Positions 6,111-55,000 are shown, counted from the stretch's first letter. The stretch: DNA of 64,000 bases from Candidatus Dojkabacteria bacterium (GCA_016932785.1 JAFGCJ010000002.1:337777-401776); one strand, 5' to 3'. Notes: generated from the sequence alone by a model not told the origin. Translations and numbers: made by a program.

Positions 6111-6127
6111 GACTCAATAATAATAAA

Positions 6128-12100: not shown

Positions 12101-13384
12101 TGGAAGAACATCGGTAATTGTTCGTACAACATTGCTACCTGAATCGAGTACCTCCAGCCTTGTATTGTCAGGATATTTCTCCTGCCAATCAAAATCTACT
12201 ACCGAGTCATCAAACTGGCCATCTTGATTTTGAGGAGAAATCCTCTCATTTGTTACAGAGACTCCACTCACCAAAGGAAATACTGAATCCTGAGTTGAAG
12301 ATACAGAGGAGCTCCATCCCCCAGTATTATAAAGACGATCCCGCGCACGAACACGATAATAATATTCCACATCATCAGTCAAAGAAGCAAAGGTATAGCT
12401 GTTTGTATCAACCCACCCAGATGAACCATCCGGCGATCCAAACGCTGGATCATCATCCATCTGAAAATTGTATTGAATTCCACCGATAAGATTATCCGAC
12501 CCGGCGGTGGAATTAACACCATTCTGAGTACCGGCCGTGAATTCAGGTTCCGAATTCATACTAACTCCAGTCGGTGCAGTAGTATCAACAACAAACGATC
12601 TCCATCCTGTATAGGTACTACATTCATCAGTTGTATCACAGTTCCTGGCACGCCAAGTCCAATGACCATCCGACAAAGTACGATTCCTGGTATACGTTTG
12701 GTCGTTTGAATTAAGAGTCTGATTGTAGTCGAGATTCCCACCTTCATTCTTTCTTACCTGAGATTCAAGTCTGATCCACTGATAGAAGTCAGGATCAAAA
12801 GACCGAGTAACAAAATCCACACTGCACCCCTGTCCTGTCCCAGAAGTATTACAGGTAACTCCGCTATATGCGGCATTATTTCTAGGACCCATCTCCCAAA
12901 GGCTCTGCGGTCTAATCATACTCGGTTGATTGGGCGGCTGATTATAGTTCTCAGCAAAATCAGCAACTTCAAGAATCGAGAACCAGCTCGTATGCCAATG
13001 AACCCACGCTATGACCTCATGATTTGTTAGTGCTGCGGTATTAACATTATCACAGAATCTATAATAGTAGCCTCCAGGATAAACTATCCTATTCGTAGTC
13101 CAGCAACTCGCCGCCTCACTCCACTCGACCCAAGGTTCATATGTACCCCTTATATAACAGATGTTATCGCCAAAATCCGGTGAAAGCTCGCCACAATCAG
13201 GATAGTCAAGTGTTGAGTAAGCTTCTACTGGATTCAGCTTGGCTGAGCTAAGAAAAATACCTCCATATGATGTAAACAACATAACAAAAAGGAGAAACAA
13301 GACACGGAAACGACCCCAAAGCCTTTTAGAGGCTAACTTTCTAAGAAAAGGGGCAGATATAGTAATATAACTATGAGGTTTCAT
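6128..13384 (-). CDS. Giant (2,418 aa) secreted/surface protein: Cys/Trp-rich N-domain, Fn3/Ig-like and FlgD-Ig-like modules, M23 (LytM) peptidase domain, terminal HExxH domain
   Basis: Uninterrupted 7,257-nt ORF with an N-terminal signal/anchor. Fn3-type signature YYYRVRARD..N. FlgD-Ig-type units (FSPNGDGNQDG...WDGRD...GDGTYTY). M23 core HGGVDF (7763-7780) and THLHFGVY (HLHF at 7466-7477). HELAH at 6437-6451 and EDWAES at 6218-6235. Confidence 0.9.
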   Translation of the reverse strand: MKPHSYITISAPFLRKLASKRLWGRFRVLFLLFVMLFTSYGGIFLSSAKLNPVEAYSTLDYPDCGELSPDFGDNICYIRGTYEPWVEWSEAASCWTTNRIVYPGGYYYRFCDNVNTAALTNHEVIAWVHWHTSWFSILEVADFAENYNQPPNQPSMIRPQSLWEMGPRNNAAYSGVTCNTSGTGQGCSVDFVTRSFDPDFYQWIRLESQVRKNEGGNLDYNQTLNSNDQTYTRNRTLSDGHWTWRARNCDTTDECSTYTGWRSFVVDTTAPTGVSMNSEPEFTAGTQNGVNSTAGSDNLIGGIQYNFQMDDDPAFGSPDGSSGWVDTNSYTFASLTDDVEYYYRVRARDRLYNTGGWSSSVSSTQDSVFPLVSGVSVTNERISPQNQDGQFDDSVVDFDWQEKYPDNTRLEVLDSGSNVVRTITDVLPAGSETPVSHQFVWDGRDNSSAFVPDGPYTLRLSVTDKAGNEEVDDSNVVIVDNIPADINISTPVSGSWFNDSDITINGQTEADAVASITNNQSSVQTALTLDGLGLFSYDDTLLLGANTFTFDVTDYVHNTNQVVVSYYQERSAPSIDSVSPDDLNNNRKPEVTVSLSDTGYDDGSNEYISGIDSDSLFISLTHPVNGELVLANDGVNTQPSLGNIQQTCDGPGNYGNSGAPSCTYKFVFTSDLTPDGDYTITTRASDVAGTSAIDSTEYFELDSNIQSDLVSPSEGNLFNYSKIQLTGTAEKNSQIDLSLPLGDLDGDGLVDSETFDVSDSVSNPSRVEVTSCHASGSPETDGIKEICDWSVVDFQLERDTVTPGNVTNQIQVDTKDNADVYPSTGLNTSSQSISVNVDLFAVTLSLNTDIEYFSPNGDGNQDGVNFTDISTNGQIDTYELEIKDSDGNVVRSFTAGGTPPNSIPWDGRDTGGNFVGDGTYTYQLKVLTTDGINFETTPASLYAATELSDSVVITYPKNDSYSSRGVINVQGQAPLSLVSTNTGTDSMLEVKICVDTMAISGECDTEYYTTVDDNGFFSTIVMLPRVNSQDEHYITATALDKYGNETPPSNQVKVTTTSNPPFENVEIIPALTGTNDPAAYQAILDKLDNGEDITQADIDALRYVIMRSTVYQGTERVRLSFADHSMVDVLPSSTDWNNIGYITGDNVTKLYKIFVDGTTPYTACNSTTCTWDFYYPLPSSLQGLYEVKFEGKLDVEVQSLTAGFTVDGNIPLTPIILDIDKVVGGIVSNTNYYNDIFYSNSKLIQIKGASDPGALIEVKDNSGNTICSTTASAVGIWNCNVDVSTVPDYSSPDTSVYTIPLDVFATLGLNTSQSIDPKTVVIDKIDPQIDQVNTSNQWRRSGSVVDLNVLANESLSYAISIDKQEASDPDQCINSSATYEIYGSNLRSSDRGDLPFWETSRSKKFLQGFLASPLPIQTGAIDDLIVASDDLSQANGSFVLSGNAVEGRYCTTVEVSDLAGNSVREGQVFFVDNTSPNTPNIDTSDWGNYNGINTKPGYIAEGRLVPEFVHEENQIKVKGWSEENTNMEFYVDAKLVSTTDLVTGECAQSLASDKIADTVNVQDKDVCAYSFNYPLTKNGKDYVFQIKSVDRAGNKSIISEDEVVYYDNKRPINPEVIRTKSVSYDPTPEWRMGNQASVTKDLSINLVTHAESLSDLEFTAFGPQSFSRYIFTQTPGNQVKDQNVPLGSSSDERSGCVNMIGTRRTGVCQDGNYTVQIISTDAAGNASGLTKHTIERDTVRPEEPVIYLDKRGAIGEEYLTLSVKGEAGATAEIHVSSRYYSRVLNANLDNHGRYSTSNLIGRITCGDVLYTATVKVVDRAKNKSDSVSDSVRSGDCPACYTPGGEYSHPVHSDKVVLTSGYRTASRPDHGGVDFALLGGPEVSWREPIYPMAPGTATKVKQQGGVKGGSPNYVDVTHDNGIVSTYWHLDNDSPSVVGLGERLDNVGEKLGHMGNTGNVWSSLSGDKAGTHLHFGVYVNGKDVNPGAYIGGGSNVVCDGVPSSGGKPASATAPSGNYKDKWAGKDGNSLGKPWVNLEVTKKEGGDFDIKVKDYYIPAPEITYVTTKYNGSKAVLNGVAVYKHRKADFEVKYKSFFGKSCFIFCSNVYTDEETIKFEDELDHVGLNFREDRPWKKDQDVGWIWNDSSDGRWEKDLELDNKDKHDLNVGDKIFTQTKIWDTTKFHTNADGDVEISFTSGDEPLISDRSNTVEIKEDKKGNIGDKYGIDLVDGAGSWTDKELEWINSLLGSLPSNLYDHGHVNEFVREASHASAAASYDYTGTKNVYVYDGAMNFSGFTRYGNINQEEGYKIVITHELAHSYEEYDKASNSAKLLSEFSKISWIENMSVIYESWAIDSKAKPTTVDYTSKSITLEDFVTDYASSYSYEDWAESVAVFQFKKGTFSGGTQKLEDKEKIVDKKF

Positions 13385-26926: not shown

Positions 26927-29900
26927 TTACTCATACTTTGGATAACAGCACTTCTTGTATTTCTTACCACTACCGCAGGGACACGGATCATTCCGTCCCA
27001 CTTTCTTACCTTTAGTTATAGTCTTCTGCTTCGAGACCTTACCAGGCCTTCTGTCCACCATTGCAGCTGTCGTCTTTGCTGCCTTATCCCCGGGGCTGAC
27101 TTTAGAGGCCTCCTCTTTCACAGCCTGAGCCCTTTCCACATCTACATCAGAGCTCTTCTTCACAACACTTACCTTAAAGAATCTTCTGACAATGTTGTCC
27201 TCCATTTGAGCAAGCATCTTGTCAAACATTGCAAACCCTTCGTTTTTATATTCCACAAGAGGATTCTTCTGAGCATATCCGCGAAGGCCAATACCATGAC
27301 GAAGATCTGTCATAAGATCAAGATGCTCAATCCAAAGATTATCAATTGTTTGCAGTATAAGAACTCGCTCTACCTCACCAATTACTTCGTCTCCCAGACT
27401 CAGGATATGGATAACATATGAGGAAATCAATAATTTGTGCAGCTCAGACAAGCGCTTCTCTACAGACCATCCGTTGGAATAGAATTTTTTCTCTAAATCC
27501 TTCCAACCTTTATAACCAATTTTCTTTGAGGCCTCGTCCGCCAGTTCTACGGGAATTACATCAAGAACTCCGGCCAAAACCTTACGTTCCTCAAGATCGT
27601 CAACTTTCGAGTCATCCCGAACCTGAGAACCAATAATAAAGTCAATATGTTGAGCCGCAAGCTTCAATACCCATAATCTCAAAGGTCGAGAAAAGATACT
27701 ACCCTCACCAAGTTCTAAAATTTTCCACGACCCCGGATCCTTAATAGAAAAGTTACTGAGAGATTGAGCCATCTCAGCAACGGCAGATTCTTTCAGTTTG
27801 GAAAAATCATATTTAATAGATTTTTTCTTAGTGTCTCCCCCCTCGGCATCTACTTTCTGTCCTGCCAGTATGGTCAGAATCTTTCTTCGCAAATCGTAGA
27901 TTATCTCCCTCTGCTGATTTAGCACATCATCATATTCAACAAGATGCTTACGGGTATCGAAATGATATGCCTCTACTCTTTTTTGTGCTGATTCTATGGT
28001 CCGTCCAATAATACCGGCTTCAATAGGTACCGAGTCGTCCATTCCAACACTGGAAAGTATTCCGGACATAGCGTTTCCACCAAATAACCGCATAAGATCA
28101 TCCTCGAAGGAAACATAGAATCTCGAAGATCCAGGATCACCTTGGCGACCGGATCTTCCACGAAGCTGATTATCAATACGACGCGACTCGTGACGTTCAG
28201 TTCCAATCACATGAAGACCCCCAAGTTCCTTCACACCATGTCCCAAGGCAATATCTGTTCCTCTACCTGCCATATTGGTAGCAATAGTAACCTGTCCCTT
28301 TTTCCCAGCTTCCGCTACTATTTTCGCTTCTTTCTCGTGCTGCTTTGCGTTCAACACGTTATGGGCAATTCCTTCTTTATTAAGCATGCTGGATAACAAC
28401 TCTGAATTCTCAACAGAGGTCGTCCCCACAAGCATAGGTTGACCTTTTTCGTGCCTCTGTTTTATTTCTTTTACAACCGCTCTAAATTTTCCCTCCTTTG
28501 TTCTGAATACAAAGTCCGGAAGATCTTTTCTTATAACAGGAAGATTCGTTGGGATTACAACAACCTCAAGATCATATATATTGGCAAACTCCTCAGCTTC
28601 AGTAAGGGCCGTCGCCGTCATCCCTGAAAGAAAATCATACAAACGAAAATAGTTCTGGAAAGTAATGGTCGCCAAAGTTCTAGATTCCTTCTTGATCTCT
28701 ACACCCTCTTTTGCCTCTATAGCTTGGTGCAATCCTTCACTGTATCGCCGTCCTGGCAAAACACGACCAGTAAATTCATCAACGATTAGTACCTGATTAT
28801 CCTTAATAATGTACTGATCATCCTTGGTATATAGCTCCTTGGCCTTGAGTGCATTATCAAGATGATGAACTTGTGCATAATTTTCCCAGATATTATCAAC
28901 TGAAAGTATCTTCTCCACTCTATCCACTCCCTCGTCAGTAAGAGAAACAGAATGGGCCTTTTCATCAACCAGGTAATCCTGAGGCGGCTTTAGCTGCCTC
29001 GCGACATTTGCAAACTGGAGGTACATTTCATTTGAGTCTTGGGCTTGAGAAGAAATAATCAGAGGAGTTCTAGCTTCATCGATTAGAATAGAGTCACATT
29101 CGTCGACAATAGCAAAATAAAGAGGCCCCTGAACTCTCTGACTCAACGAATGAGCCATATTATCCCGAAGATAATCAAAACCAAACTCATTGTTGGTGCC
29201 ATAAATAATGTCACAGGCATAGGCTTCTGATTTACTACACCTTTGAAGATTTACTCCCGACATATGGTCATACTTAAGCCGGCCAACCTCCGAGCGAAGC
29301 TTTTCTCGCTCTTCAATTTTCTTCTGGGCTTCGTCTCCTTTCAGATCAACAGCTTCTTTGTCAGTAATAAATTTGTAGGCCGCCCCTGGAGTAATAACGC
29401 CAACCTTCATACCCAGAGCACCATATATGTGTCCTGCCCATTCACCGTCTCTTCTTGCAAGATAGTCATTTACGGTTACAAGATGAACACCTTTACCCAT
29501 CAAAGCGTAAAGAAAAAGCGGACATGTAGCTACAAGCGTTTTACCCTCTCCAGTAAAGTGTTCTATCACATACCCATGAGCCTGAAATATACCCGCCAAA
29601 ATCTGAACATCGAAATGTCTATGATTAGTCTGACGCCTTGAAGACTCTCTCACTCTTGCATATATTTCTGGAAGAATCTCCAAAAGCCTTTCCCTATCAT
29701 CTTTCTGCCGCTTATTCTTTTGTTCTTCTGTTAAGGCTGGAAGAAAAGGATCTCTCTCCCTTCTTGATTTTTCTAAGTCTATACCCAGTTTTTTCCTGAA
29801 ATCCTCAGCTGTTTTCATTAGCTCAGTATCAGAGAGCTTCTGAACCGACTCCTCAAGACCATTAATCCCCTCAACAATAGGTTTGAATTTCTTTAGCTGT

Positions 29901-29941
29901 CTCTCATTGGAGTCAAAGAATTTTGATAAAAAATTCAGCAT
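26927..29941 (-). CDS. secA: Preprotein translocase ATPase SecA
   Basis: The ATG at 29941 gives MLNFLSKFFDSNERQLKKFKPIV, the canonical SecA N-terminus; the ORF-track start at 29995 adds 18 atypical residues. Walker A FTGEGKTLV, DEAD-like IVDECDSILIDEARTPLIIS, and a C-terminal zinc finger CPCGSGKKYKKCC. Confidence 0.95.
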   Translation of the reverse strand: MLNFLSKFFDSNERQLKKFKPIVEGINGLEESVQKLSDTELMKTAEDFRKKLGIDLEKSRRERDPFLPALTEEQKNKRQKDDRERLLEILPEIYARVRESSRRQTNHRHFDVQILAGIFQAHGYVIEHFTGEGKTLVATCPLFLYALMGKGVHLVTVNDYLARRDGEWAGHIYGALGMKVGVITPGAAYKFITDKEAVDLKGDEAQKKIEEREKLRSEVGRLKYDHMSGVNLQRCSKSEAYACDIIYGTNNEFGFDYLRDNMAHSLSQRVQGPLYFAIVDECDSILIDEARTPLIISSQAQDSNEMYLQFANVARQLKPPQDYLVDEKAHSVSLTDEGVDRVEKILSVDNIWENYAQVHHLDNALKAKELYTKDDQYIIKDNQVLIVDEFTGRVLPGRRYSEGLHQAIEAKEGVEIKKESRTLATITFQNYFRLYDFLSGMTATALTEAEEFANIYDLEVVVIPTNLPVIRKDLPDFVFRTKEGKFRAVVKEIKQRHEKGQPMLVGTTSVENSELLSSMLNKEGIAHNVLNAKQHEKEAKIVAEAGKKGQVTIATNMAGRGTDIALGHGVKELGGLHVIGTERHESRRIDNQLRGRSGRQGDPGSSRFYVSFEDDLMRLFGGNAMSGILSSVGMDDSVPIEAGIIGRTIESAQKRVEAYHFDTRKHLVEYDDVLNQQREIIYDLRRKILTILAGQKVDAEGGDTKKKSIKYDFSKLKESAVAEMAQSLSNFSIKDPGSWKILELGEGSIFSRPLRLWVLKLAAQHIDFIIGSQVRDDSKVDDLEERKVLAGVLDVIPVELADEASKKIGYKGWKDLEKKFYSNGWSVEKRLSELHKLLISSYVIHILSLGDEVIGEVERVLILQTIDNLWIEHLDLMTDLRHGIGLRGYAQKNPLVEYKNEGFAMFDKMLAQMEDNIVRRFFKVSVVKKSSDVDVERAQAVKEEASKVSPGDKAAKTTAAMVDRRPGKVSKQKTITKGKKVGRNDPCPCGSGKKYKKCCYPKYE

Positions 29942-29950
29942 AACGAAGTG

Positions 29951-29959
29951 ATTATAACA
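29951..29959 (-). promoter_or_regulatory. Extended -10 (TGTTATAAT) 9 nt upstream of the secA ATG
   Basis: The minus strand reads TGTTATAAT-CACTTCGTT-ATG, with no Shine-Dalgarno in between. Confidence 0.45.
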
Positions 29960-30030
29960 TGCATAGCAATCATTGCGGGATGAAAAATATGTCAAAACCG
30001 AATTTTAAGAATTTTTTAATCTCTCGAGTC

Positions 30031-30036
30031 TACAAT
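30031..30036 (+). promoter_or_regulatory. -10-like hexamer (TACAAT) 6 nt upstream of the ATG at 30043
   Basis: TACAAT-TAGAAC-ATG. The upstream region is AT-rich with no good -35. Confidence 0.35.
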
Positions 30037-30042
30037 TAGAAC

Positions 30043-33000
30043 ATGAAAAAAATCACTTTATACTTATGCCTATCCGTAACTATTTTCCTTATATTCAGCA
30101 AACAAGACTCCATCGCCAAGATTCAGCACGTCGACATACGTTCAGACACCTATGTTGAGGAAATGTATCCTACAGTATCTCCATGGAACAACAAGAATCT
30201 CTATATCGGGAAGGACACATGGTATGGGAAAGGGAAGACAAGAGCATACGTAAGAGCAGATCTCACTGGGTTGGAGAATCTCGGAATTATCGGTAGGGAC
30301 ATCGTCAACGCTAACCTATACCTTTACCAATACGAAAATGAAGGAAACTCCCCCTACACTTTACTCGCGTTCCGTCCAAAAGAGAACTGGAACGAACGCT
30401 TAGTAAACTGGAGCAATCAACCTAATAATCTTGAGCAGATTTCATCAAATTCCCAATCAAACTCGAACGGATGGAAGAAGATAGATATTACGAAATACGT
30501 AAAGAACGCATTGGACGATGACCTTAATTACGGCGTCAACATAAAACTTAAGACTGAAGATTCACCAGCAATAATTTTCTGGTCAACAGCCTGTGTCGGG
30601 ACACCAACTCCACCATCATGCAATCCAACCGAAAAACCTTATGTCCAGGTAGAATTCACTCCCAATGCGCCTCCAAACCCACCTGTTCTCCTCGATCCGC
30701 AGGATGATATTTTCCTTCAGGCAGGACTCATCCACTTTGAAGCCAACTCTTCTACCGATCCTAATGGCGAAAAAATACAGTATCGGCTAGAAATATCAAA
30801 ATCCGACAGCTTCGAAACACTAATATATAAAAGCCAGCTTTCAGATATACCAAGATTTGACTATACCCTGTCGGAAGAATCCAAGTATTTTTGGCGCATG
30901 GCGTCAATAGACGAGCACGGAGAAATCTCGGGAAAAACGTATTCAGAAACAAGAACATTCTTTATAGATAAAACACCTCCAACAGTACCAATAATAGATC
31001 CCGAGCCTCCATTCACAAACGGCACCGAAAATACAATCACCTGGTCAAGTTCCTCAGATAATTATGCAAAGACAATCACATATAGAGCCGAGATAAGCGA
31101 GACAGAGGACTTTAGCAAGAATGTCAACTCATCGGAATGGTTGACTGATCTTAGTACAAAGTTCACTAACCTAGAGGACAACAAACACTATTATTATAGG
31201 GTAAAATCACGCGACGATGCAAAAAATACATCTGAATATTCATCCGTTGTTTCTTCAACACAGGACAACAACCCGCCGCAGATCAAAGACTTTCGCCTAA
31301 GCACGTCATTGATCTCACCATTTAACCCATCAAGCAAATCAGTTCGCGACTACACAGAAATCAAAGGTAAGATCGAAGATCCCACCCTAAGATCATGGAA
31401 ACTACTAGTAGTAGATCAGAACCACAAGAATGTATCAACACTTAAAGCTGAAAACAATGTTTTTTCATTCAGCTGGCCACAGGACGATTCCCGAATTTCG
31501 AAATTATCAGATGGAAAATATTTCGCTTACATCAATGCAACTGATAGCTTCGGGAAAACAATGAATTCCAAATCGCTGGAAATAACAATTGATGATACGA
31601 GCCCAGCTACTCCTACTATTGAAAATCCAAAAAGCGAGTCATACTCAAATTCCCACTCAATAACTCTTATCTCCAAAGTCGAGAAAAACACATCAAACAA
31701 TATATATCTAAACGATATTCTACAGGCTCGAAGACTAGCTATTAGTAAGATATCACAAGACATCAAAATACCTAAAGACGGAAAACACTCAATAAAAGTA
31801 GAGTCCCTCGACGAAGCAGGCAACAAAAGTTCAACCACTGTTACAGTAAATATTGACACATCGCCTCCTAACGCGCCAGAAATAGAGTTACATCCAGACT
31901 CAAAAGCCAATTCTATTTCTATAAGTATTAAAGGCGAGAAAGAGACCACTGCAAAAATCTATATTAACGGAAAACTCACAAAATCTTTCACGCATACCGA
32001 TAATAAAAAGACAGACATTGTAAAAAAATGGACAGTCAACCAAGAGTACAAAGTTTTCGCGACACTTGTAGACAGGGCTGGAAATATAAGTCCCAAATCA
32101 AAAATAAGAAGCTACAAAACTCCGGACTCAAATGTTCTTGGTACCGGAATGGGCTTTGGAGACATAACCAACTATCCCAAGGCTCCCAAGATAAAGACCT
32201 GCACCATTAAGGTTCATAAAGACAGGAAAATATACGACATAAAAAACTGTAACATATCCGCACCATCACTTGCTGAAATAGAAAATAGAGGTAAAAATGG
32301 CAACATATACTGGCTAACACTGTACGGATCAGCACAAAAGAAACTCAAAATTAAACTCGAGAAATACAGATGCAAGAAAAAAAGCATCTTCGATCCAAGA
32401 ACCTGGTTTTTTTGTATAGATCAAAAATACAAACAGGAAACCAAGACGGTAACACCAAGACTCGAGATAATCTCTAGGCTAAGTAATGGCAAAGAGCTGT
32501 ACGAGTACAAAAAATCAATTAATACGAAAGGCAATTTCTACTCAGACGACTACACCTGGTACGATCCAAACAATAAAAAAGTCTCTTCAAAAAGTATCCT
32601 ATCAGGTTATCTTAAAGTTGAAGGTATATGGATAGACTATCAATACAAAAGTGGAAAATCTAATAGCATCAAAGTACCTAAGGAGTCCAAGAATAGTGGA
32701 AAATACTTTTCTTTTGTATTCAATGAAATTATAGGCGTAACTCAATGGCATGGTTATACTGCATACCAAAGCCCCCATACAGGAATAGACTTCGGGGCAG
32801 TAGAAAAAAAGATCATTTCACCAGCAAACGGTTATATCCGAGCGGTTGGATGGGATAGTTATTACGGCCAATGTCTTTCCGGAGGAAATTACATACGAAT
32901 CGAACATGATAACGGCATGCACACTGTCTATATGCACCTGAAAAACTACACCAACAGCCAGGGGAAAAAATGGAAAGTCGGGCAAAGAATTCTCCGTGGA

Positions 33001-33210
33001 CAACAGGTGGGAATCAGCGGAAACTCAGGAGCATGGAACTGCCAACCGCTCGGATATCATCTACATTTTGAACTTAGAAAAAGCAGAAGTCAATCCACCC
33101 ATCTAAATCCTGTCCCCTACATAGACATTAATTGGAACCTCATACACACAATCGGCTCTCAAAATAATCCCGGCAGACTAACTGGCGATAATCCACATCC
33201 AAGTTATTAA
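30043..33210 (+). CDS. Secreted 1,055-aa protein: DNRLRE/CBM96-like N-domain, Fn3/Ig-like and FlgD-Ig-like modules, C-terminal M23 peptidase
   Basis: Signal peptide MKKITLYLCLSVTIFLIFS. DNRLRE-type pattern (DTYVEEMYP...RAYVRADLTGL...ANLYLYQY...ENWNERLVNWSNQP). Fn3 signature YYYRVKSRDDAKN. M23 core HTGIDFGA (32776-32799) and HLHF (33058-33069). Confidence 0.9.
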   Translation: MKKITLYLCLSVTIFLIFSKQDSIAKIQHVDIRSDTYVEEMYPTVSPWNNKNLYIGKDTWYGKGKTRAYVRADLTGLENLGIIGRDIVNANLYLYQYENEGNSPYTLLAFRPKENWNERLVNWSNQPNNLEQISSNSQSNSNGWKKIDITKYVKNALDDDLNYGVNIKLKTEDSPAIIFWSTACVGTPTPPSCNPTEKPYVQVEFTPNAPPNPPVLLDPQDDIFLQAGLIHFEANSSTDPNGEKIQYRLEISKSDSFETLIYKSQLSDIPRFDYTLSEESKYFWRMASIDEHGEISGKTYSETRTFFIDKTPPTVPIIDPEPPFTNGTENTITWSSSSDNYAKTITYRAEISETEDFSKNVNSSEWLTDLSTKFTNLEDNKHYYYRVKSRDDAKNTSEYSSVVSSTQDNNPPQIKDFRLSTSLISPFNPSSKSVRDYTEIKGKIEDPTLRSWKLLVVDQNHKNVSTLKAENNVFSFSWPQDDSRISKLSDGKYFAYINATDSFGKTMNSKSLEITIDDTSPATPTIENPKSESYSNSHSITLISKVEKNTSNNIYLNDILQARRLAISKISQDIKIPKDGKHSIKVESLDEAGNKSSTTVTVNIDTSPPNAPEIELHPDSKANSISISIKGEKETTAKIYINGKLTKSFTHTDNKKTDIVKKWTVNQEYKVFATLVDRAGNISPKSKIRSYKTPDSNVLGTGMGFGDITNYPKAPKIKTCTIKVHKDRKIYDIKNCNISAPSLAEIENRGKNGNIYWLTLYGSAQKKLKIKLEKYRCKKKSIFDPRTWFFCIDQKYKQETKTVTPRLEIISRLSNGKELYEYKKSINTKGNFYSDDYTWYDPNNKKVSSKSILSGYLKVEGIWIDYQYKSGKSNSIKVPKESKNSGKYFSFVFNEIIGVTQWHGYTAYQSPHTGIDFGAVEKKIISPANGYIRAVGWDSYYGQCLSGGNYIRIEHDNGMHTVYMHLKNYTNSQGKKWKVGQRILRGQQVGISGNSGAWNCQPLGYHLHFELRKSRSQSTHLNPVPYIDINWNLIHTIGSQNNPGRLTGDNPHPSY

Positions 33211-33219
33211 TAATTAAAA

Positions 33220-34191
33220 ATGAAGCTAAAACGTCTAATAATCATTGCAGGTGCAGCTCTAGCTACTTACATCACAATTTCTTTATTAAGTTATTTCTTC
33301 GATGGTAAAACATCACCAGAAATCCCCAATACACATCAGACACTATTTTTCACGGGAATATACCCAAAAAAAGTTCTCTGGATTAATAAGCAGGTTCTTG
33401 TAGCTCTCGAAGAAAATTCAATAATAATCTACGACACTAATGAAAGGACTGTAAGAAAAAAAATTGAGATTAATCAGCCAATAATAGATATACAAGTGAA
33501 TTCGGAAAAGATTTTCATCATATCCAAAGACAATGATAACTCAATAGTCTACAAAATTTCCGAAAATGGGGAAGTTGAGAATACTGTCAAATTCCCCAAG
33601 GCCGACACAATAGTTATCCAAGATAAATACAGCTGTCATACCAAAAGCTTCGAAATAAAAAGCCCAGAAGAAGTAGCTTCCATAATAACAATATATAAGG
33701 ACAGAAAAATAATTAATGAAATCAGATCATCTCTTTCAGTAAAGCCCCTAAACTGTGACTCCAAAAAGCTCTATCTAGTAAAGTCAAGCCCTGTTCTAGA
33801 GAACCACCTATACTCCTGGGAAAATAACAAAATAAAAAATCTCACTCTAAATCGTGAGGATATTCTTTCGATAGGTATCTCACAGAACATGAAATTGATA
33901 GCTATAGAAACAGATACCTCTATCGAAGTACTATCAGACTCATCAAAAATAATTAACTCAGCTAATTACAATGGACAACCTTGGTATCTAACACCTAACA
34001 AAATACTTTTTCTCGAAAATTCAGACAATAGATACGAAGTGAAATCCTACATTCTAGAGGAATCAGAGAAAAAGATTGAAACCATATTTGAATCAGAGGA
34101 AAATTTCACAGATATCATACCATCACCAGATGAAAACAATTTCATACTACTATCAGAATTCGGAGAGTTATGGATATCAAAGAGAAAGTAG
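33220..34191 (+). CDS. Membrane-tethered beta-rich protein (unknown function)
   Basis: 323 aa. N-terminal TM helix LIIIAGAALATYITISLLSYFF, followed by repetitive short beta-strand-like segments. It starts 9 nt after the M23 protein stop. Confidence 0.6.
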   Translation: MKLKRLIIIAGAALATYITISLLSYFFDGKTSPEIPNTHQTLFFTGIYPKKVLWINKQVLVALEENSIIIYDTNERTVRKKIEINQPIIDIQVNSEKIFIISKDNDNSIVYKISENGEVENTVKFPKADTIVIQDKYSCHTKSFEIKSPEEVASIITIYKDRKIINEIRSSLSVKPLNCDSKKLYLVKSSPVLENHLYSWENNKIKNLTLNREDILSIGISQNMKLIAIETDTSIEVLSDSSKIINSANYNGQPWYLTPNKILFLENSDNRYEVKSYILEESEKKIETIFESEENFTDIIPSPDENNFILLSEFGELWISKRK

Positions 34192-34713
34192 AAACCTCTT
34201 ATTGTAGTTATTCATCTCATCTTCGTATTTCTCAACATCATCCCTGTAATTTTCATATAGCTGCGGCAGGTCCTTACTATCATCCCAAGTATCGTTCTCC
34301 TCAGCGCATTTTTCAGCAACTGACTGAACTGCCTCGAGATATTCTACAGCTGAATTACAAACATCTTCCTGATTATCACTTAGTTGTCTAGCCGCGAAAT
34401 TTAAGTTTTTCCATTTTGACTCAAGATTTTTTACTGCTTCAACATTATCAGATGCTTTCTTTTCAACATTTTCACATCCTTTAAAAGTTAAACCTTCTTC
34501 AGTATCAACAAGGAGGTTTACTTCATCGACATAATCCATTATCTGCTCTACATACGAGTATGATCTGCTGCCAACAATGAATCCGACCAATCGAACAACA
34601 AACAGAATAAAGAAGACGGCACCTACTGCACATCCTCCAATAATGATGTATCTCAGATATGGAATTATCCTATATTTGCTATTTCCTTTAACAGATTCCA
34701 TAGGTAAGGCCAA
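34177..34713 (-). CDS. Membrane-tethered hypothetical protein
   Basis: 178 aa. TM helix YIIIGGCAVGAVFFILFVVRLVGFIV followed by a helical acidic domain. Its 3' end overlaps the convergent gene by 15 nt. Confidence 0.5.
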   Translation of the reverse strand: MALPMESVKGNSKYRIIPYLRYIIIGGCAVGAVFFILFVVRLVGFIVGSRSYSYVEQIMDYVDEVNLLVDTEEGLTFKGCENVEKKASDNVEAVKNLESKWKNLNFAARQLSDNQEDVCNSAVEYLEAVQSVAEKCAEENDTWDDSKDLPQLYENYRDDVEKYEDEMNNYNKRFLLSL

Positions 34714-35171
34714 AAAATAATAAGACCTGTCACCGCAGACGCTATAGAGCTCACCAGTACAGCGCCGGCACTTACATCTTTTGCGTAACGAATATTTACT
34801 TTGTACTCCTTAGACACTGTGTCGCATACTGCCTCAATAACACTGTTAAATGCCTCCGATATAAGCACAAGTCCTGCAACTAGAGCCAAAGCAACCCAGT
34901 CCGAATGTCCTATCCCCAAAATCAAGCCGCCAACAACAACAAGAGCAAGGGCGACAATCTGAATTCTAAAGTTACGCTCGTTCTTTAATATGAGCTTTAG
35001 TCCTGAAACAGCAAATCTGTAACTTTCGAAAAAGTTTCTTGCGTCGTACTTATGATTCTTTCTATTAGAGTTTTCTTCAACATAACAGATATTCTCGGGA
35101 CAAGAGCATGACTGAGCATTGTCAGAAGTGTTATTTTGTCCATCTATTTCAGAGTTTTTTTCTTTTTCCAT
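34665..35171 (-). CDS. dgkA: Diacylglycerol/undecaprenol kinase family protein (DgkA) with N-terminal extension
   Basis: The core RFAVSGLKLILKNERNFRIQ...SEAFNSVIEAVCD...AKDVSAGAVLV matches the prokaryotic DAGK family. About 45 extra N-terminal residues contain SCSCPENIC. Confidence 0.8.
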   Translation of the reverse strand: MEKEKNSEIDGQNNTSDNAQSCSCPENICYVEENSNRKNHKYDARNFFESYRFAVSGLKLILKNERNFRIQIVALALVVVGGLILGIGHSDWVALALVAGLVLISEAFNSVIEAVCDTVSKEYKVNIRYAKDVSAGAVLVSSIASAVTGLIIFWPYLWNLLKEIANIG

Positions 35172-36393
35172 TTGCAGCTACCTGTTCTAATATCTTATAT
35201 GTCTGAGCTGCCGTATTTTCCCAGGTATAGCCTTCAGACCTAATCATCCCAGATTCTCCTAGTTCCTGAGCAAATGTGTCATCAGTAGTAACTTTGTAGT
35301 AGGCTTGCGCAACTGCTTCGGTATCCTCAGGATCAACCAGCAATGCACCATCTCCCAGTACCTCAGGATAGCATGATCTATTGCTTGCAACAACCGGAGC
35401 CCCACATCTCATGGCTTCAAGAGGAGCAAACCCAAATCCTTCATATAACGAAAGATGCGTAAATACACTACAACCACATATGAGGTCATTCAGGTCTTCG
35501 TCTTCAAAAAAGCCCGTGAAATAAACATATTCCTCAAGACCAAGGTCTGCTATAAGATATCTAACCTCTGCAAGAAAGGTATTCCTCATATCAAGTCTGG
35601 TAAAATCACCTCCCGCCAAGACCAGATACGGAGGATATTTTTCTGATTGACTCTTGTACATTTTCCTTAAAGCGGCATAGGCTTTGATCAATCCCGGTAC
35701 ATTCTTATTTTTCTCTACCCCAGAGTAATACATAATATACCCTGTCTTAATAACCTCTTTCGGCAGGTATTTCAGGAGAACATCCATATCCGGTTCCACT
35801 TTCCGAAATCTATCTGAAATCCCAAGGTAAACAGGCAAAACTTTTTCCTTAGGTATCTTTACATACTTAAGAAGATCCTCCTTAGTTTTAATAGAGTTCG
35901 TAATTACTCGATCGGCTTTTGCAACACGTCTAAGAGCATTATGATACTGGAACTTTCTTATCCAATCGAGGTATTTGGGAGCTGAGGAATATCTATTCAA
36001 TATGGGAAATGCTAAATCATGAATCATTACAACTGTCTTGGTTTTCCTTAACGGAAACCCTCTCCAAAAGTAGGGGCAAAAATACACATCCGGAATCTCC
36101 TCCCTCAAAAGAGCATCAATAGCTGGTCTATACTGCCTAAGCCACCAAACAAAATTCAATTTATCCGATGCCCTACATGGCCCGATATTTATGGTACGGA
36201 TAATATCAGGATAATCTCGAATTGTAGACTCAATCGTTGTCGGAGAATTGAATGTCAATAGATAGTAGATATCGTCGCGAGAATTATCATGACTTTGTTT
36301 CACCATATTAGAGACAACTTCTTGGGTATACCTACCTGGCCCACGATTCGCAAACTGGTCCTGAGTTGTTGTCGCATCTATAACAATCTTCAT
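35149..36393 (-). CDS. Glycosyltransferase family 4
   Basis: 414 aa with a GT-B C-terminal motif: LSLYEGFGFAPLEAMRCGAPVVASNRSCYPEVLGDGALLVDPED. Confidence 0.85.
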   Translation of the reverse strand: MKIVIDATTTQDQFANRGPGRYTQEVVSNMVKQSHDNSRDDIYYLLTFNSPTTIESTIRDYPDIIRTINIGPCRASDKLNFVWWLRQYRPAIDALLREEIPDVYFCPYFWRGFPLRKTKTVVMIHDLAFPILNRYSSAPKYLDWIRKFQYHNALRRVAKADRVITNSIKTKEDLLKYVKIPKEKVLPVYLGISDRFRKVEPDMDVLLKYLPKEVIKTGYIMYYSGVEKNKNVPGLIKAYAALRKMYKSQSEKYPPYLVLAGGDFTRLDMRNTFLAEVRYLIADLGLEEYVYFTGFFEDEDLNDLICGCSVFTHLSLYEGFGFAPLEAMRCGAPVVASNRSCYPEVLGDGALLVDPEDTEAVAQAYYKVTTDDTFAQELGESGMIRSEGYTWENTAAQTYKILEQVAANGKRKKL

Positions 36394-40833: not shown

Positions 40834-40852
40834 ATTGAAAATAACTTCATCT

Positions 40853-43819
40853 ATGCTCATCATGAGAAGGAAACTGCGAGTTGCCATTCTTTCACTTTTC
40901 CTAGTTTTTTCAGTTGTATTAATAGCAGGCCTGTTTATCTCACAAAGAGTACATTCAGAGAATGACCGACTATGGGATGAAGTCTATGAAATGACATCTG
41001 ACGAAAAGGAATTTGCTCTGGACAGAATTATTGTTAAGTTCAAAGACAACGCATCGGAGAAAGAAATCAAGAAGAGTTTATCCAGTACCACCGTCGATAT
41101 AGAAAAAACAAACCTAATATCAAAAAGAAACGTCTACTCTATTTACATTTCCGAAGAAAGATCAACAGACGAGGCTGCCAAGTTCAGCCTTTCCGGATTA
41201 AGTTCAAAAACATCAGAGGACCGGGATGGGCGGGAAGAAAAAATTGCCACTCTCCGAGAAGCACTTCTTGGATATCTCAAGGATCCAAACGTCGAGATAG
41301 CTCAACCAAGCTATGTCCATAGATTCTCCACCTGGATCACAAACGGCGTCAGAGATCTTCCCGATGACTATAACGCGTCAGAACACTGGTACTATGACAA
41401 AGGAAATCTGGGACAAATGTGGCAAGACCAGGACTGCGGTACCGGAGGATCCGGATGCGGCGGCGACAACAATATTGTTGTCGCAGTCTTAGATTCAGGT
41501 CTTGCATACGAGGACCACACAACCGACTATTTTCCAGCCTACACAGGAGATCCCACAGCTTATGACTTCTATACCGCATCAGAATATAACAACAGTAACG
41601 GATTCTCTTTATACACAAATTCAGATGAGACCGGATGCGATGATGGCGACGATGACGACGGAAACGGATATATCGATGACTGTCACGGCCTAAACGCTTA
41701 CGAACAGGCAATCTGCAACTATAACTCATGCACAACATCGCAAGAATCTGAAATCGGCCATCCAAATGACGACTACGGGCATGGAACATTTGTAACAGGA
41801 CTTATATCTTCGATTGTAGAAAATAACGCCGGAAGTATATCACCAGCCCCTAATGTATCAATAATGCCAATAAAGATTTCCGAGAGAGTCTCACACAGTT
41901 TACCAATGTATGTCGGAGACCCTCCTTCACCAGCGATTTTCACCGAAACAATTATCTATGGAATTGAATATGCGATATCAGAAGGTGCAGATGTAATCAA
42001 TATGAGCTACGGATCAAGCAGTTCAAACTATATAGAAGAATACTTCATTAAGGAAGCATACAACAACGGCATAACTCTAGTAGCCGCTGCAGGTAATGGC
42101 TTTGGAGATGCAATAGAATATCCGGCAGCATACTCTGAGGTAATAGCCGTAGGAGCAACAGACAGCTCAGACAACAGAGCAAACTACTCAAATAGAGGAA
42201 GCGAAATGGACTTAGTTGCTGCTGTCGGAGATGGATCCGGTACCGGAAACGCAGCATGGCAGCAAAGTATTACTATGCTTGACACCAATGACTACGGCAC
42301 CTGTCTTGTCACTGAATATACTGATGAAACATCTTGTACCACAAATGGATACTCATGGATTGGAGGAAGATGTATCGATCCCTACAATGAAAATGCCTTC
42401 GACTGCATTACATCAGGACTTGACTGGGAAATCGGTGACTATAGTGCAACATCTACATTTCATGGAATTGGAACCTCATACGCATCACCGCAGGTAAGTG
42501 CCGCAGCAGCATTAATAAAGGGATCGGCAAATTACCCACAAAAACCTAGCGAAATAAGGAACTTTCTTAGAATAAATACAACATCACTCTCTAGCGGTTT
42601 TTCTAAGGATTTTGGTTTTGGACTTCTCAACTTCGAAGGCATAACAAATTTCGACTATGTTATGAGATTGATCCATAGCGGTAACTCAAGAGGAAATACG
42701 GATATCAGTGACTGGGACTATGGATACTGGAAATCCGAATGTATGAACAGCGGATTTCTTCATGGTCTAAGCATGAACACAAGCACATATGATCTTAACG
42801 GCATGGTTTGTGACGATACAGGTACTGACCTTATTGAACCTAGTTCTTCCTACAGCGTTCACACATTTAACGGTGGGAACTCTCGCGGTTCTACGAACTC
42901 CGGAGACTGGGACTACGGTTATTGGAAAGGCGAATGTGGTAATAATGAATACATTACAGGCACGAGTATGAAAACTTCCACCAGGGATAGTCAATCTATA
43001 CTTTGTAGAGAATATAACGATGATAACATCGCCATGTCTTGGGAATATAAAAAGTACACAATCCCAGGCGGCGATCGTGGATATGGTTCAACAGCGGCCG
43101 GCGATTGGGACTATGGTTACTGGAAATCCCAATGCAGTGTATATGAGATGGCCGTTGGTGTAAGTATGAGCCCAACATCCAGACATGATCACGGACTCTT
43201 ATGCCGAAGATATGAAGAAATCCCAAGCGGACACATGATAAGATTTTATGATGGCAGCAATTCCAGAGGGACTACTGCAGCCGGAGACTGGGCCTACGGC
43301 AGATGGAAAGGTGAGTGTAATGAAGCTAGCTTTGTAAAAGGTACCAGCATGAATCCGTCAACAGGTCAGCCAAGTGCTATGCTGTGCAAAGACGAAGATC
43401 CGTACCTTCTCGACAGTCCTCTTTCATACAATGTATATACTTACAACGGAGGCAACGATCGAGGATCAACAGCATCTGGAGACTGGGACTTTGGATACTG
43501 GAAGGGCGAATGTGCTGATGACGAGTTTATCGCAGGATTTAGCATGTATCCAAGCAGTGCTGGAAGCAATGCGTACGATCCATATTCCATAATATGTAAA
43601 AAATACGATCCCAGTAAGATAGATATAACATCGAACTATACAGCTTACGTTTACTATGGAAGTGAAGACCCAAGAGGAGATACTTCTACAGGAGACTGGA
43701 ATTATGGAAACTGGAAAGGCGAATGCGCATCAAACGAGATAATGACAGGAGTTAGTATGAACCCTTCCACAAAGATGCCTCACGCAATACTTTGTAGGGA
43801 ATACACTGTCGTACCCTAG
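40853..43819 (+). CDS. Secreted subtilisin-like serine protease (S8) with N-terminal prodomain and six C-terminal Cys-pair repeats
   Basis: Catalytic triad contexts VVAVLDSGLAYEDH, DDYGHGTFVTGLI and HGIGTSYASPQVSAAAALI. Ca-binding-type insert DDDGNGYIDDCHG. Prodomain-like LDRIIVKFKDNASEKEI...NVEIAQPSY. Signal anchor RVAILSLFLVFSVVLIAGLFI. Confidence 0.9.
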   Translation: MLIMRRKLRVAILSLFLVFSVVLIAGLFISQRVHSENDRLWDEVYEMTSDEKEFALDRIIVKFKDNASEKEIKKSLSSTTVDIEKTNLISKRNVYSIYISEERSTDEAAKFSLSGLSSKTSEDRDGREEKIATLREALLGYLKDPNVEIAQPSYVHRFSTWITNGVRDLPDDYNASEHWYYDKGNLGQMWQDQDCGTGGSGCGGDNNIVVAVLDSGLAYEDHTTDYFPAYTGDPTAYDFYTASEYNNSNGFSLYTNSDETGCDDGDDDDGNGYIDDCHGLNAYEQAICNYNSCTTSQESEIGHPNDDYGHGTFVTGLISSIVENNAGSISPAPNVSIMPIKISERVSHSLPMYVGDPPSPAIFTETIIYGIEYAISEGADVINMSYGSSSSNYIEEYFIKEAYNNGITLVAAAGNGFGDAIEYPAAYSEVIAVGATDSSDNRANYSNRGSEMDLVAAVGDGSGTGNAAWQQSITMLDTNDYGTCLVTEYTDETSCTTNGYSWIGGRCIDPYNENAFDCITSGLDWEIGDYSATSTFHGIGTSYASPQVSAAAALIKGSANYPQKPSEIRNFLRINTTSLSSGFSKDFGFGLLNFEGITNFDYVMRLIHSGNSRGNTDISDWDYGYWKSECMNSGFLHGLSMNTSTYDLNGMVCDDTGTDLIEPSSSYSVHTFNGGNSRGSTNSGDWDYGYWKGECGNNEYITGTSMKTSTRDSQSILCREYNDDNIAMSWEYKKYTIPGGDRGYGSTAAGDWDYGYWKSQCSVYEMAVGVSMSPTSRHDHGLLCRRYEEIPSGHMIRFYDGSNSRGTTAAGDWAYGRWKGECNEASFVKGTSMNPSTGQPSAMLCKDEDPYLLDSPLSYNVYTYNGGNDRGSTASGDWDFGYWKGECADDEFIAGFSMYPSSAGSNAYDPYSIICKKYDPSKIDITSNYTAYVYYGSEDPRGDTSTGDWNYGNWKGECASNEIMTGVSMNPSTKMPHAILCREYTVVP
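42674..43816 (+). repeat. Six tandem coding repeats (61-71 aa period) with consensus GGNSRGsT..GDWDYGYWKGEC....f..G.SM.pS......ilC..Y
   Basis: The DW(D/A/N) codons recur at 42710, 42905, 43103, 43286, 43481 and 43694, giving spacings of 195, 198, 183, 195 and 213 nt. Each unit has exactly two Cys. Confidence 0.85.
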
Positions 43820-52011: not shown

Positions 52012-55000
52012 CTACTCACTTTCCAAGTCAATAACAACCTCATCAACAAGATAACTGGAATAGAAATCATCCAAATCGGGTGGCCCCAAAAACCTGAAGT
52101 CTATATCCTCTCCCAGTTTATAACTGTCAGTGTACTCAATCTCCGAATAGTACCAACCATCAATTTCCCTCACATTAAGATTACTCCTCGAAACAGCAAT
52201 TTCATCACTTTTATCTATATCAGTGAAATAATATCGGAAGGGATAGAAATATGACTCGGGCGAAAAAGAATATATTGTGTAATTGGAGGAAATCATATTT
52301 GAAAGACATGTCAATGATATCGAATCCAGACTCTCATCACCCAATTCAAAAATCCTGGAATCTTTGTACACAATAGGCAAGAGATCCCTCTGACTTGGTG
52401 TTCCGCCAGATCCAGATGCATTGCAGTCATTCTCTGAGAAAAAATCCTCACCAACAACTCGACTTCGCTCAATAACTGTCTCCATCGGAATAAAGTACAA
52501 GTTTGTATCTTCCTCAAATGTTATGCTACCACCAAAAATGGATGAATCCAAAGTGCTAAAAACCAGCTTGTCTGAATTTATCCTGATCCTTCGAAACACA
52601 ATATCGGAACTCATTCGTCCAGCAACATTCCAGTATCCTGGCGCCCTAAGACTTATCTTATATAGACCCTCATCAAGATCATGCTTAAGTAGATTTATAC
52701 TCAAATTTGTATCAGAGTGAAACAGGACATTGGCATAATCTTCAACATATGTTGAAGCAACAATATTTCCTGAAGAATCCGAAATATCGATAACAAATTC
52801 ATCTAGCCCTATCTTATTATTCAAATCATCATAGACTATTTCTAAATCAAGTACATCGCCCAAAACAGTATAAAAAATGATATCTCCAGAGATATCTATT
52901 TCCTGATCTATTTCACCTCCGTTATATTCGAAACTATTATAGTAATCAGCTAGAACAAGTTTTTGCTCACTTTCGAGATAGGAGTCAGTATACGAATACT
53001 TGTCGACCCCAACAAAACTTCCCTCATCAAGATTCGAACTAAGTACTGCCTCAAGGTTCCCATCTCTTTGTAATTTTGATCTCGAGTAGACAAAGTGATC
53101 TCCATACTGCTGTTTTTCTGTAAAATTTACCAGATCCTTATCAAAGAGTAGTCTTGGAGAATCAAAAATCTTCCTGCCATACGAGCTTTCTGGTTGAAAA
53201 TACACAGGTCCCGATGATTTCAACTTTTGACCCACAACAGTCTTAACATTCTTTTCCTCAAAGAATGGTGAATATTTCAGAATGTAAGAATTGCTTTCAG
53301 AATTACTTGCCAAATCAGACTTTCCAAAACTTTCCGTTACTGATATTCCGAGAGGAGATATATACTTGTAGATCGTATTGGAGAACAAAGCAAAGGGAGA
53401 TACAGCAACCAAAACAAGAAATATCTTCACCACCCACTCCTCAGTTTCAGAAAGTTTCAAGCCCTCTCTAAAATGAAATGCAGGCAGAAGTAATCCGCAT
53501 ATAATAGATATTGCCAAGAACATCCTCCTAAGAACTATAGGTGAATCGACAAGAAGAATATAAGCCGTTAGCATAAAAGAAAGAATTGAAAGGTACAAAA
53601 TCACCCTTCCTAACAACTTTCGAAGTCTTATTGGAATCCTTCCGACCGTTTTTTCCCACAAGAAATCCCTGGTCTTCACAATAAAATCAAGATTCAACCA
53701 GACAAGAATAACAAGATCAAATAACAGAAAGACAATCCCAAGAACTATTGGAATAAAAGTTATCCTCTCAATTTCAGCATAATCATTAATGAAAATTCTA
53801 AAATGTTCAATACTCTGCCAGAGATTTGGGTGCATGATACTTGTCTCATACCTATTCAAAATAAAAGCTCCCAGTGCTGCCAATATTAAGCCAACAGCCA
53901 AAACAAGGATGTTTATTAAAAGTACAATCTTTCCAATCCGAGCCTTGTTATCACCAATCCTTTTAAAGGACAATCTTAAGTACTCTTTCTCTTTTACAAA
54001 TTTCATCAAAATGCCACCAACAACCAGGTAGCTAACCAGCAATGCCAATACAATAAGAACATACTCAGACAAGGTAACAACTTTTTCAAAATCACTCTTA
54101 ACAACTTCGTCACTGACAGCTTCCGGAGCCACTGTTTCGAGAATGGCAGACACATCACCCCACCCCATCGAAAGAACCGCAGGGTTAAGAACAATTATGT
54201 TGCCATCACCAGGACCACCCTCAAATAAAAGGACCATATTTATGCCTCTGTAACTTACAAGAACATCCGTTGCAAGATCACTGGATATGTTCTCCAGCTC
54301 TTCACCAGAAGGAAAATAATCACTAAAAATATCATCTATCTCAGCCTCCCCACTTACATCATCCGACACTATTTCCTTTTCCCTTCTAATATCCAAATAC
54401 TCCTCTGCATCTCTATTATCATAGATGACGACATCCTTACCAGACTTAATATACGATTCGATCTGAGTTCTTTTCCCTTCAAAGTCAAAATAAGGACCAA
54501 TAACTCCAACATTTGTAATAAATGGAACCTTGAGCTCATACAACATCATAGAATAAGCACTACTTCTCTTAGACAAAATCTGAAGCTCATATTCTCCAAT
54601 CTCAGGCAAGTCTATTACCATCATTGTCCCTGCTCCAATAACAAATTCTTTTCCCGAGGGAGCTCTGATAAGGAGAGACACATCCGAAAGTTCTGTTCCC
54701 AAACCCTTCACCTCCGAAACTTCGCCGACATCAAGTTCTAACGCCACATCTGAAGGACTAAATAACTCAAACTTATGGACAGTACCATATGAAAATCTCT
54801 CGTCCTTCCCATCAATAAGAATTCCAAGCATTTCATCCTCATCAACTTTCTCTGCTTTACTGACATCAATTAGACTACTTACAATGAAATCGGAAACGGA
54901 ATCATCAATCAGCACAGGCTTTTCTGAAGCAAAGGCTATGCTTGGCAAGAGCAAAGATACCAATACAAAAAGACCAATTATCACAAACCTCTTTCGAAGC

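Follow-up and report, generated by a model that had tools for sequence, protein, structure and literature searches.

In the FtsEX-EnvC, FtsEX-RipC and FtsEX-PcsB systems, which belong to the setting of the envelope and cell division, a membrane partner encoded adjacent to a wall hydrolase, of the M23/LytM fold or of another type, governs that hydrolase. The partner is made up of FtsX, a polytopic protein of the ABC type, with FtsE as its ATPase; EnvC itself is catalytically degenerate. The role of EnvC and NlpD has been described (PMC9662197). Here we report a gene pair at positions 30043-34191 of a 64,000-nucleotide (nt) stretch of DNA, hereafter the window, from a Candidatus Dojkabacteria bacterium (GCA_016932785.1, JAFGCJ010000002.1:337777-401776). 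Gene A of the pair codes for a predicted secreted multidomain M23 peptidase, and gene B, directly downstream, for a protein modelled as a membrane-anchored β-propeller. We conclude that the pairing of A with B is not accidental, and suggest that the two proteins may act together at the cell surface.

By analogy, A-B would work like the membrane-partner-controlled wall hydrolases, but with a partner of a different type and with an M23 domain that appears catalytically complete. Whereas the FtsEX partner is polytopic, B is predicted to be a single-pass protein with a propeller ectodomain, and the M23 domain of A, unlike EnvC, has all of the catalytic residues. No ftsE or ftsX is present among the called genes of the related loci that were read, and the pair does not class with the FtsEX type. 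The Tse1-Tsi1 pair resembles A-B in being a bicistronic unit of hydrolase and partner, in which Tsi1, a partial β-propeller, blocks the hydrolase (PMC3391265). Tse1, however, is an NlpC/P60-type amidase delivered by a type VI secretion system, whereas A is a predicted Sec-exported M23 protein; Tsi1 is a small, periplasmic, three-sheet propeller fragment, whereas B is modelled as a complete, seven-bladed propeller with a transmembrane anchor; and the A-B locus is core and syntenic, whereas Tse1-Tsi1 lies in a secretion-system island.

The M23 domain of A follows the H(x)nD, HxH and upstream His pattern of lysostaphin, LytM, zoocin A, ShyA and MepM. In contrast to those secreted endopeptidases, A is without any domain that targets peptidoglycan, such as SH3b or LysM; instead, its N-terminal DNRLRE/CBM96 domain is followed by an Fn3/Ig stalk and a Cys-rich domain, its C-terminal tail is unique, and its gene adjoins one for a propeller rather than a FemABX enzyme. 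On the side of B, a bacterial comparison is offered by Lp49 of Leptospira (PDB 3bws), a surface-associated propeller that ranks third among the Foldseek matches to B (E 8.2e-10, TMq 0.54). With 16% identity and no known M23 link, however, it represents a match to the generic fold, and eukaryotic WD40 proteins score equally. No published description of this M23-plus-propeller cassette was found in the literature on M23 proteins and peptidoglycan in Patescibacteria and Dojkabacteria.

The features of the pair are given below, with residues (amino acids, aa) numbered within each protein and the source of each assignment in brackets; "megaprotein" denotes a second M23 protein of the window, which is described further on.

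30043-33210, plus strand: gene A, predicted secreted multidomain M23 peptidase (open reading frame, Pfam and NCBIfam domains, orthologues)
30043-30117, plus strand: putative Sec-type signal peptide, aa 1-25, MKKITLYLCLSVTIFLIFSKQDSIA followed by K (from the translation: positive n-region, hydrophobic core, S-I-A site)
30136-30603, plus strand: DNRLRE/CBM96 domain, aa 32-187 (Pfam PF24517, NCBIfam NF033679)
30664-31593, plus strand: two Fn3-like modules and one FlgD-Ig/Big_13-like module, aa 208-517 (BLASTP to megaprotein aa 148-516; Pfam)
31594-32142, plus strand: further Ig-like modules, aa 518-700, each closing with D-x-T/S-x-P (weak Pfam, OmpL47-type, BLASTP)
32185-32682, plus strand: Cys-rich domain, aa about 715-880, with invariant C720, C736 and C777 (orthologue alignment)
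32773-33093, plus strand: M23 peptidase domain, aa 911-1017, with H912, D916, H965, H1006 and H1008 (Pfam PF01551)
33103-33207, plus strand: family-specific C-terminal tail, aa 1021-1055, NPVPYIDINWNLIHT...NPGRLTGDNPHPSY (motif scan)
33211-33219, plus strand: A-B spacer of 9 nt, without a terminator-like site
33220-34191, plus strand: gene B, predicted 323-aa single-pass membrane protein (AlphaFold2, Foldseek, family alignment)
33223-33300, plus strand: predicted N-terminal transmembrane helix of B, aa 2-27 (AlphaFold2 model)
33337-34185, plus strand: predicted extracytoplasmic seven-bladed β-propeller of B, aa 40-322 (AlphaFold2 model)

Gene A is an open reading frame (ORF) of 1,055 aa and gene B one of 323 aa. 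Both proteins are identical to NCBI entries with JW710_ locus tags, and "DNRLRE domain-containing protein" is the NCBI product name of A. An earlier, sequence-only reading of the window had placed these two ORFs nine nucleotides apart, and the coordinates, the length of A and the gap of exactly 9 nt (TAATTAAAA) are as it gave them. A scan for promoters and terminators returned counts at or below shuffle expectation, with nothing between A and B. The two genes probably constitute an operon in which B is co-transcribed and often translationally coupled.

Loci of the A family were assembled from A orthologues, from two collection scans with the A alignment and from look-ups starting at the partner. 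After removal of duplicates, 24 distinct informative loci were available: the window (W), L001-L007, L009, L010, L013, L015-L021, L023-L026, L082 and L083. In every one of them a same-strand gene whose product has an N-terminal hydrophobic segment starts between -26 and +73 nt from the end of A, the segment being weak in L024/L025 (KD 1.12). Seventeen of the 24 downstream genes, P0031 and P0037 among them, match a hidden Markov model (HMM) of the B family. Four others form a second group whose members are mutually related at about 1e-24 to 1e-7; this group aligns with B at an hhalign probability of 64% (E 6.7e-5), with 159-203 colinear columns according to which alignment is used, and is possibly homologous to it. 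The partners in the remaining three loci, L005/L012 (456 aa), L018 and L021, are not detectably related to B.

The association also holds in reverse. Starting from the partner, an A-type M23 gene with the tail is found directly upstream in 4/4 loci (the window and three that were fetched), and none of 54 generic M23 loci from a metagenome scan contains a B-family gene. Comparison across related genomes, proposed in the sequence-only reading as a check, thus comes out in favour of the pairing, which that reading had already held to be functional rather than accidental; the adjacency sustains this view, but the argument from paralogy that was offered for it fails, as discussed below. Operons of this type span Candidatus Dojkabacteria and other metagenome-assembled genomes labelled as Patescibacteria, and are single-copy within each locus examined; the taxon labels of some of these genomes (Saccharibacteria, Nomurabacteria) are as deposited.

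The domain organisation of A is that of an exported enzyme with a long N-terminal extension. Its signal-peptide cleavage site is placed at aa 25, as judged from the translation. The adjoining domain matches CBM96 (PF24517, aa 32-181, 5.9e-17, 62.4 bits, cut-off 26) and the DNRLRE_dom model NF033679 (3.2e-23, 82.6 bits, cut-off 34), so that both profiles support the glycan-binding type of N-terminal domain that had been recognised by eye, the binding itself being a prediction. Alginate is the ligand of the founding CBM96 member (PMC9971899), a specificity that should not be assumed for A. Within the stalk that follows, Pfam finds Big_13 (1.2e-12) and weak fn3 and Ig_Rha78A_N matches in aa 208-517, and weak Glucodextran_B and Cadherin-like matches in aa 518-700; an OmpL47-type domain is placed by NCBIfam at aa 569-603. 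The modules of aa 518-700 also match megaprotein aa 1446-1829 (BLASTP). D-x-T/S-x-P linkers close the Ig-like modules on their C-terminal side, and those reported earlier for A are indeed present, at aa 309, 517 and 605 with a DNNPP at 408. The pattern D-x-[TS]-x-P is modestly enriched: it occurs three times in A against 0.6 expected (p about 0.02), and five times in the megaprotein against 1.8 (p about 0.035). Full-length A orthologues share 28-46% identity.

Directly before the M23 domain lies the Cys-rich domain, which has the motif CKxKSxxDPRTWF-C and no match in Pfam or NCBIfam. The M23 domain itself matches PF01551 at 67.4 bits (cut-off 28.7, E 1.3e-18) over aa 911-1017. Active M23 enzymes are defined by H(x)nD and HxH motifs together with a His about 30-40 residues before HxH (PMC9662197). 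The catalytic residues H912, D916, H965, H1006 and H1008 of A are invariant in the eight orthologues aligned and are seen in at least 20 family members; the two core segments picked out beforehand, 32776-32799 and 33058-33069, correctly encode H912-TGID916-FGA and H1006-L-H1008-F. On these sequence grounds the M23 domain of A appears catalytically complete, with peptidoglycan endopeptidase as its predicted activity.

Members of the A family range from 365 to 1,055 aa, and the M23 domain is always kept and the Cys-rich domain usually. The CBM96 domain and Ig stalk are dispensable, A being cut to 365-694 aa in some lineages, and it is profile positions 703-1050 of the family that these shorter proteins retain. 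Shortened A genes always keep a partner and nearly always keep the C-terminal tail. This ultra-conserved tail, with the consensus ...DWNxIxT...PGRL(T/S)GxNPHPxx, ends A in all but two lineages, and its GxNPHP motif stands exactly two residues before the C-terminus in proteins of every length (365-1,055 aa). A motif scan found it in 24 A-family ORFs of the scanned set, plus L082 and L083, and not in the A-family proteins of L005/L012 and L025, the ORFs of the generic M23 loci (L027-L080) or the megaprotein. The A protein of L025 appears to be C-terminally truncated; a full-length A without the tail occurs only in L005/L012, which is also the lineage with a clearly unrelated partner of 456 aa. 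From its distribution, the tail appears to be specific to this M23 subfamily.

Gene B had been read as an N-terminal transmembrane helix followed by β-strands, and the model of B, all-β after the helix, agrees with this. An AlphaFold2 prediction from a 24-sequence alignment (pLDDT 92.1, pTM 0.82), which replaced a single-sequence model (pLDDT 55), contains 28 strands that form seven four-stranded blades. More than 1,100 PDB entries match this model at E<=1e-3 in Foldseek; the top matches are seven-bladed WD40-type propellers with TM scores of 0.53-0.62, among them Vps11 (3.5e-10), Lp49 and eIF3i (TM 0.62). At the sequence level, the best Pfam matches of B, at E 0.01-0.04, lie far below the cut-offs, NCBIfam gives none, and the family profile finds only weak WD40-protein matches among PDB sequences (IFT144 5e-6, Pwp2 3e-3). 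B is thus predicted to have a propeller fold while belonging to no curated sequence family, that of the WD40 proteins included. A word-indexed homologue search with B returned only itself, whereas an exhaustive HMMER search brought up 28 representative clusters, of which 17 reach E<=1e-10; most are of 290-370 aa.

C139, P176, C179 and a C-terminal GELWI are invariant or nearly so in the B family. Positively charged residues precede the transmembrane helix and, with the conserved Cys pair, suggest that the propeller faces outwards; the conserved Cys pairs of A and B alike fit an extracytoplasmic location. The B family has long forms of 323-371 aa and short forms of 213-274 aa, as noted from the partner genes of L006, L010, L013, L015, L017, L019, L020 and L024-L025. 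The short forms appear to lack the segment that matches aa about 224-290 of the window protein, which would mean fewer blades, and partner length does not follow the length of the M23 protein. One candidate relative was rejected: P0035 (L081 5001-14171, 3,056 aa) matches aa 128-159 of B in five places, but its gene context is unrelated and it has faint Pfam matches to BNR, Y_Y_Y and the type IX secretion-type domain Por_Secre_tail, so that the similarity is probably spurious and has been treated as repeat-level.

The pair is set between two conserved genes:

26927-29995, minus strand: secA, flanking the A-B pair, its translation ending in a SEC-C-type CPCGSGKKYKKCC motif
34665-35171, minus strand: DAGK_prokar-family kinase gene on the other flank (Pfam PF01219, 5.9e-30), kept in both types of locus

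Flanking orthologues in the related loci carry SecA Pfam domains, and phmmer places secA beside the pair in most of them. Two arrangements are seen among the window (26927-36393) and L001-L026. In the first, secA is on the minus strand, A and B on the plus strand, and dagK and a GT4 gene on the minus strand; in the second, dagK, trmD, A, B and secA are all on the plus strand. An inversion of the A-B block as a whole, with its internal order kept, distinguishes one from the other. L009 and L020 retain the pair, and no secA was found within their fetched flanks.

Synteny with secA also provides a yardstick of evolutionary rate. Identity to the window over the M23 domain and tail is 70-72% in genomes where SecA is 65-73% identical, and 42-49% where SecA is 48-51%, with 70% against 73% and 45% against 48% as examples; evolution of this module at the rate of SecA fits a core function. 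B, in contrast, is about 25% identical where the M23 domain and tail are at ~70%, and its similarity is undetectable in the more distant comparison. By these identities, B evolves much faster than the M23-plus-tail module.

A mechanism that accommodates these observations can be proposed. A would be a Sec-exported peptidoglycan endopeptidase whose invariant core comprises the Cys-rich domain, the M23 domain and the ...PGRL(T/S)GxNPHPxx tail, and whose variable N-terminal extension, with the DNRLRE/CBM96 domain as a glycan-binding tip on an Fn3/Ig stalk, would project outwards. The propeller of B would be the membrane-tethered receptor or regulator of this otherwise anchorless hydrolase, holding the M23 end of A at the surface of the cell, perhaps by binding the C-terminal tail, which is free. 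Such tethering would confine or gate the cleavage of peptidoglycan cross-links. From the conserved pairing, the architecture of the two proteins and the model of B, we give a rough probability of 0.55 to the view that A and B are an interacting hydrolase and membrane receptor or regulator. More tentatively, and with a good deal of doubt, the tail could be envisaged as a docking ligand for the propeller, a so far undescribed, Patescibacteria-specific tether or gate that takes the place of sortase, LysM or SH3b anchoring, and the stalk as reaching host glycan during attachment to the host or breaching of its wall.

Several points weigh against an interacting pair. The tail is also kept in L018 and L021, whose partners are not detectably related to B, so that its match to the propeller is a conjecture. 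The low identity of B (26% where A has 70%) is unexpected for a tightly co-adapted interface. Synteny of the secA region is generally well kept, and part of the adjacency signal therefore reflects slow genome rearrangement. As to the target, it may be either the wall of the organism itself or that of a host.

A different function for the same pairing is conceivable, although we regard it as doubtful: A could lyse the walls of hosts or competitors, and B could be a membrane-anchored inhibitor that protects the producer by blocking the M23 groove. An enzyme gene followed by a tightly coupled small gene is the order of an effector-immunity operon, and Tsi1, as an inhibitory partial β-propeller of the peptidoglycan hydrolase Tse1 (PMC3391265), sets a precedent. 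The fast evolution of B and the resemblance of the glycan-binding tip and long stalk of A to a targeting device point the same way. Effector-immunity genes, however, are variable, often mobile or multi-copy, and diversify together, and arms-race pairs usually diverge on both sides. Here the pair occupies one syntenic, apparently vertically inherited position adjoining secA, between secA and dagK, is single-copy per fetched locus and is not polymorphic or mobile, and the enzyme core is as slow as SecA, with only B diverging. Furthermore, where immunity to a secreted M23 bacteriocin is known (Lif, Zif), it belongs to the FemABX type, according to works cited in PMC9662197.

It is unlikely that A and B are independent envelope proteins, adjacent merely through the conserved gene order of small, compact genomes. 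The secA, dagK and GT4 flanks are likewise conserved, and in some lineages (L005, L018, L021) the partner slot holds a protein without detectable similarity to B. Yet the pair has been inverted as one block and persists where the fetched flanks show no secA (L009, L020). The spacing between A and its partner is minimal or overlapping in all loci, and an N-terminal hydrophobic segment is encoded downstream in 24/24 loci (weakly in L024/L025) against a background of 22%.

A further explanation of the pairing arises from comparison with another part of the window:

6128-13384, minus strand: comparator megaprotein, 2,418 aa (window ORF)
11837-12943, minus strand: megaprotein aa 148-516, Fn3/FlgD-Ig segment homologous to A (BLASTP, Pfam, A-family profile)
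7433-7780, minus strand: M23 domain of the megaprotein, aa 1869-1984, with H1869, D1873, H1927, H1970 and H1972 (Pfam 3.6e-11, BLASTP)
3882-4883, minus strand: transmembrane-anchored ORFan, the proposed partner of the megaprotein, not B-related and not adjacent to the megaprotein

A had been described as a smaller copy of the same design as the megaprotein, and the pairwise comparison proposed for the two large proteins shows to what extent this is so. Residues 208-554 of A align with aa 148-516 of the megaprotein at 29% identity over 378 columns (E 8e-26, BLASTP), and the two M23 domains at 3e-07. The segments that had been aligned by eye (EDNKHYYYRV.../DDVEYYYRV...) lie inside the longer alignment, as does the ISPFN or ISPQN that precedes a FlgD-Ig/Big_13 unit in both proteins. 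Thus the Fn3/Ig modules and M23 are common to both, and the likeness ends there. The A-family profile matches the megaprotein only at these modules, with no match to the N-terminal domain, the Cys-rich domain or the tail; Pfam and NCBIfam find no CBM96 or DNRLRE domain in it; and its M23 domain, although active-looking, lies inside the protein and not at the C-terminus. The B-family HMM finds no relative of B beside the megaprotein. The two proteins are homologous at the domain level only, their extension modules being common by descent. Beyond its M23 domain, the megaprotein has an HExxH motif, VITHELAHSYEE, in its C-terminal region at aa 2370-2393 (6206-6277, minus strand); with a weak Peptidase_Mx match (E 0.029), this region may be a second metallopeptidase domain.

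The downstream proteins show even less in common. B and 3882-4883 had been assigned the same layout, which holds for the N-terminal transmembrane segment and no further, and such a segment carries little information, since one is present in 11 of the 49 gene-sized ORFs of the window (about 22%). The pairwise and HHalign comparison of 33220-34191 with 3882-4883, on which the claim of paralogy had been staked in advance, gave no significant similarity: BLASTP returned E 0.46, hhalign with B-family profiles of 24 or 33 sequences returned probabilities of 1.3% and 0.3%, and a further hhalign comparison 0.2%. For 3882-4883, which NCBI annotates with a later start (303 aa), a search of 5.8 billion proteins found only itself, and there was no Pfam or PDB match. 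It is also separated from the megaprotein by the ORFs 5505-6110 and 4858-5436. These three consecutive ORFs, all N-terminally anchored, follow the megaprotein on its strand, the last two overlapping by 26 nt; none has a Pfam match and none is similar to another or to B.

That 30043-34191 and 3882-13384 are paralogous modules, each of an M23 surface protein with a homologous tethered partner, is therefore very improbable, and at the level of sequences and profiles refuted, despite the Fn3/Ig modules and M23 domain common to the large proteins (8e-26, 3e-07 and profile matches) and the N-terminal transmembrane segment of each small one, because the proposed partners are dissimilar and 3882-4883, an ORFan two genes away with intervening ORFs equally unrelated to B, is not the neighbour of the megaprotein. 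Those parts of A that accompany the partner from locus to locus, namely CBM96, the Cys-rich domain and the tail, are all missing from the megaprotein. Where about one-fifth of the proteins of a genome are N-terminally hydrophobic, common domains and a transmembrane neighbour are not evidence of module paralogy.

The neighbours of the pair are envelope-related genes, with GT4, DUF2142 and S8 subtilase genes among them. The adjacency of secA was also considered as a functional link to the pair, and was set aside; conserved synteny explains it equally well, and no secA was found in the flanks fetched for L009 and L020. In the co-directional loci L003/L004, the called start of secA (10014) lies within the partner gene, which ends at 10017, so that the two share 4 nt. 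Between B and dagK in the window, a 178-aa, N-terminally anchored ORF (34177-34713, minus strand) runs towards B and shares 15 nt with the 3' end of that gene. Homologues of this ORF (E 1e-10 to 1e-29) lie between the partner and dagK in L001, L002 and L007, and it belongs to no Pfam family. Farther away, 40835-43819 (plus strand) encodes an S8 subtilase of 994 aa that has a hydrophobic segment at its N-terminus and a prodomain like that of fervidolysin, and 52012-55014 (minus strand) a 1,000-aa protein with about seven predicted transmembrane segments and no Pfam match.

Patescibacteria (candidate phyla radiation, CPR) are thought to live mostly as episymbionts, to have walls of peptidoglycan and to encode, in their reduced genomes, few regulators of wall remodelling that can be recognised. 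In such cells, a predicted wall endopeptidase that evolves as slowly as SecA and is always coupled to a membrane-anchored protein, modelled as a propeller, may well serve a core function of the envelope, such as cell separation or making openings in the wall; alternatively, the pair could act at the interface with the host. B would represent an uncharacterised family of 28 clusters, without a Pfam or NCBIfam model, whose members with examined context all come from this lineage. The GxNPHP tail of A provides a concrete candidate for the site at which the two proteins would interact, and hence a hypothesis that can be tested.

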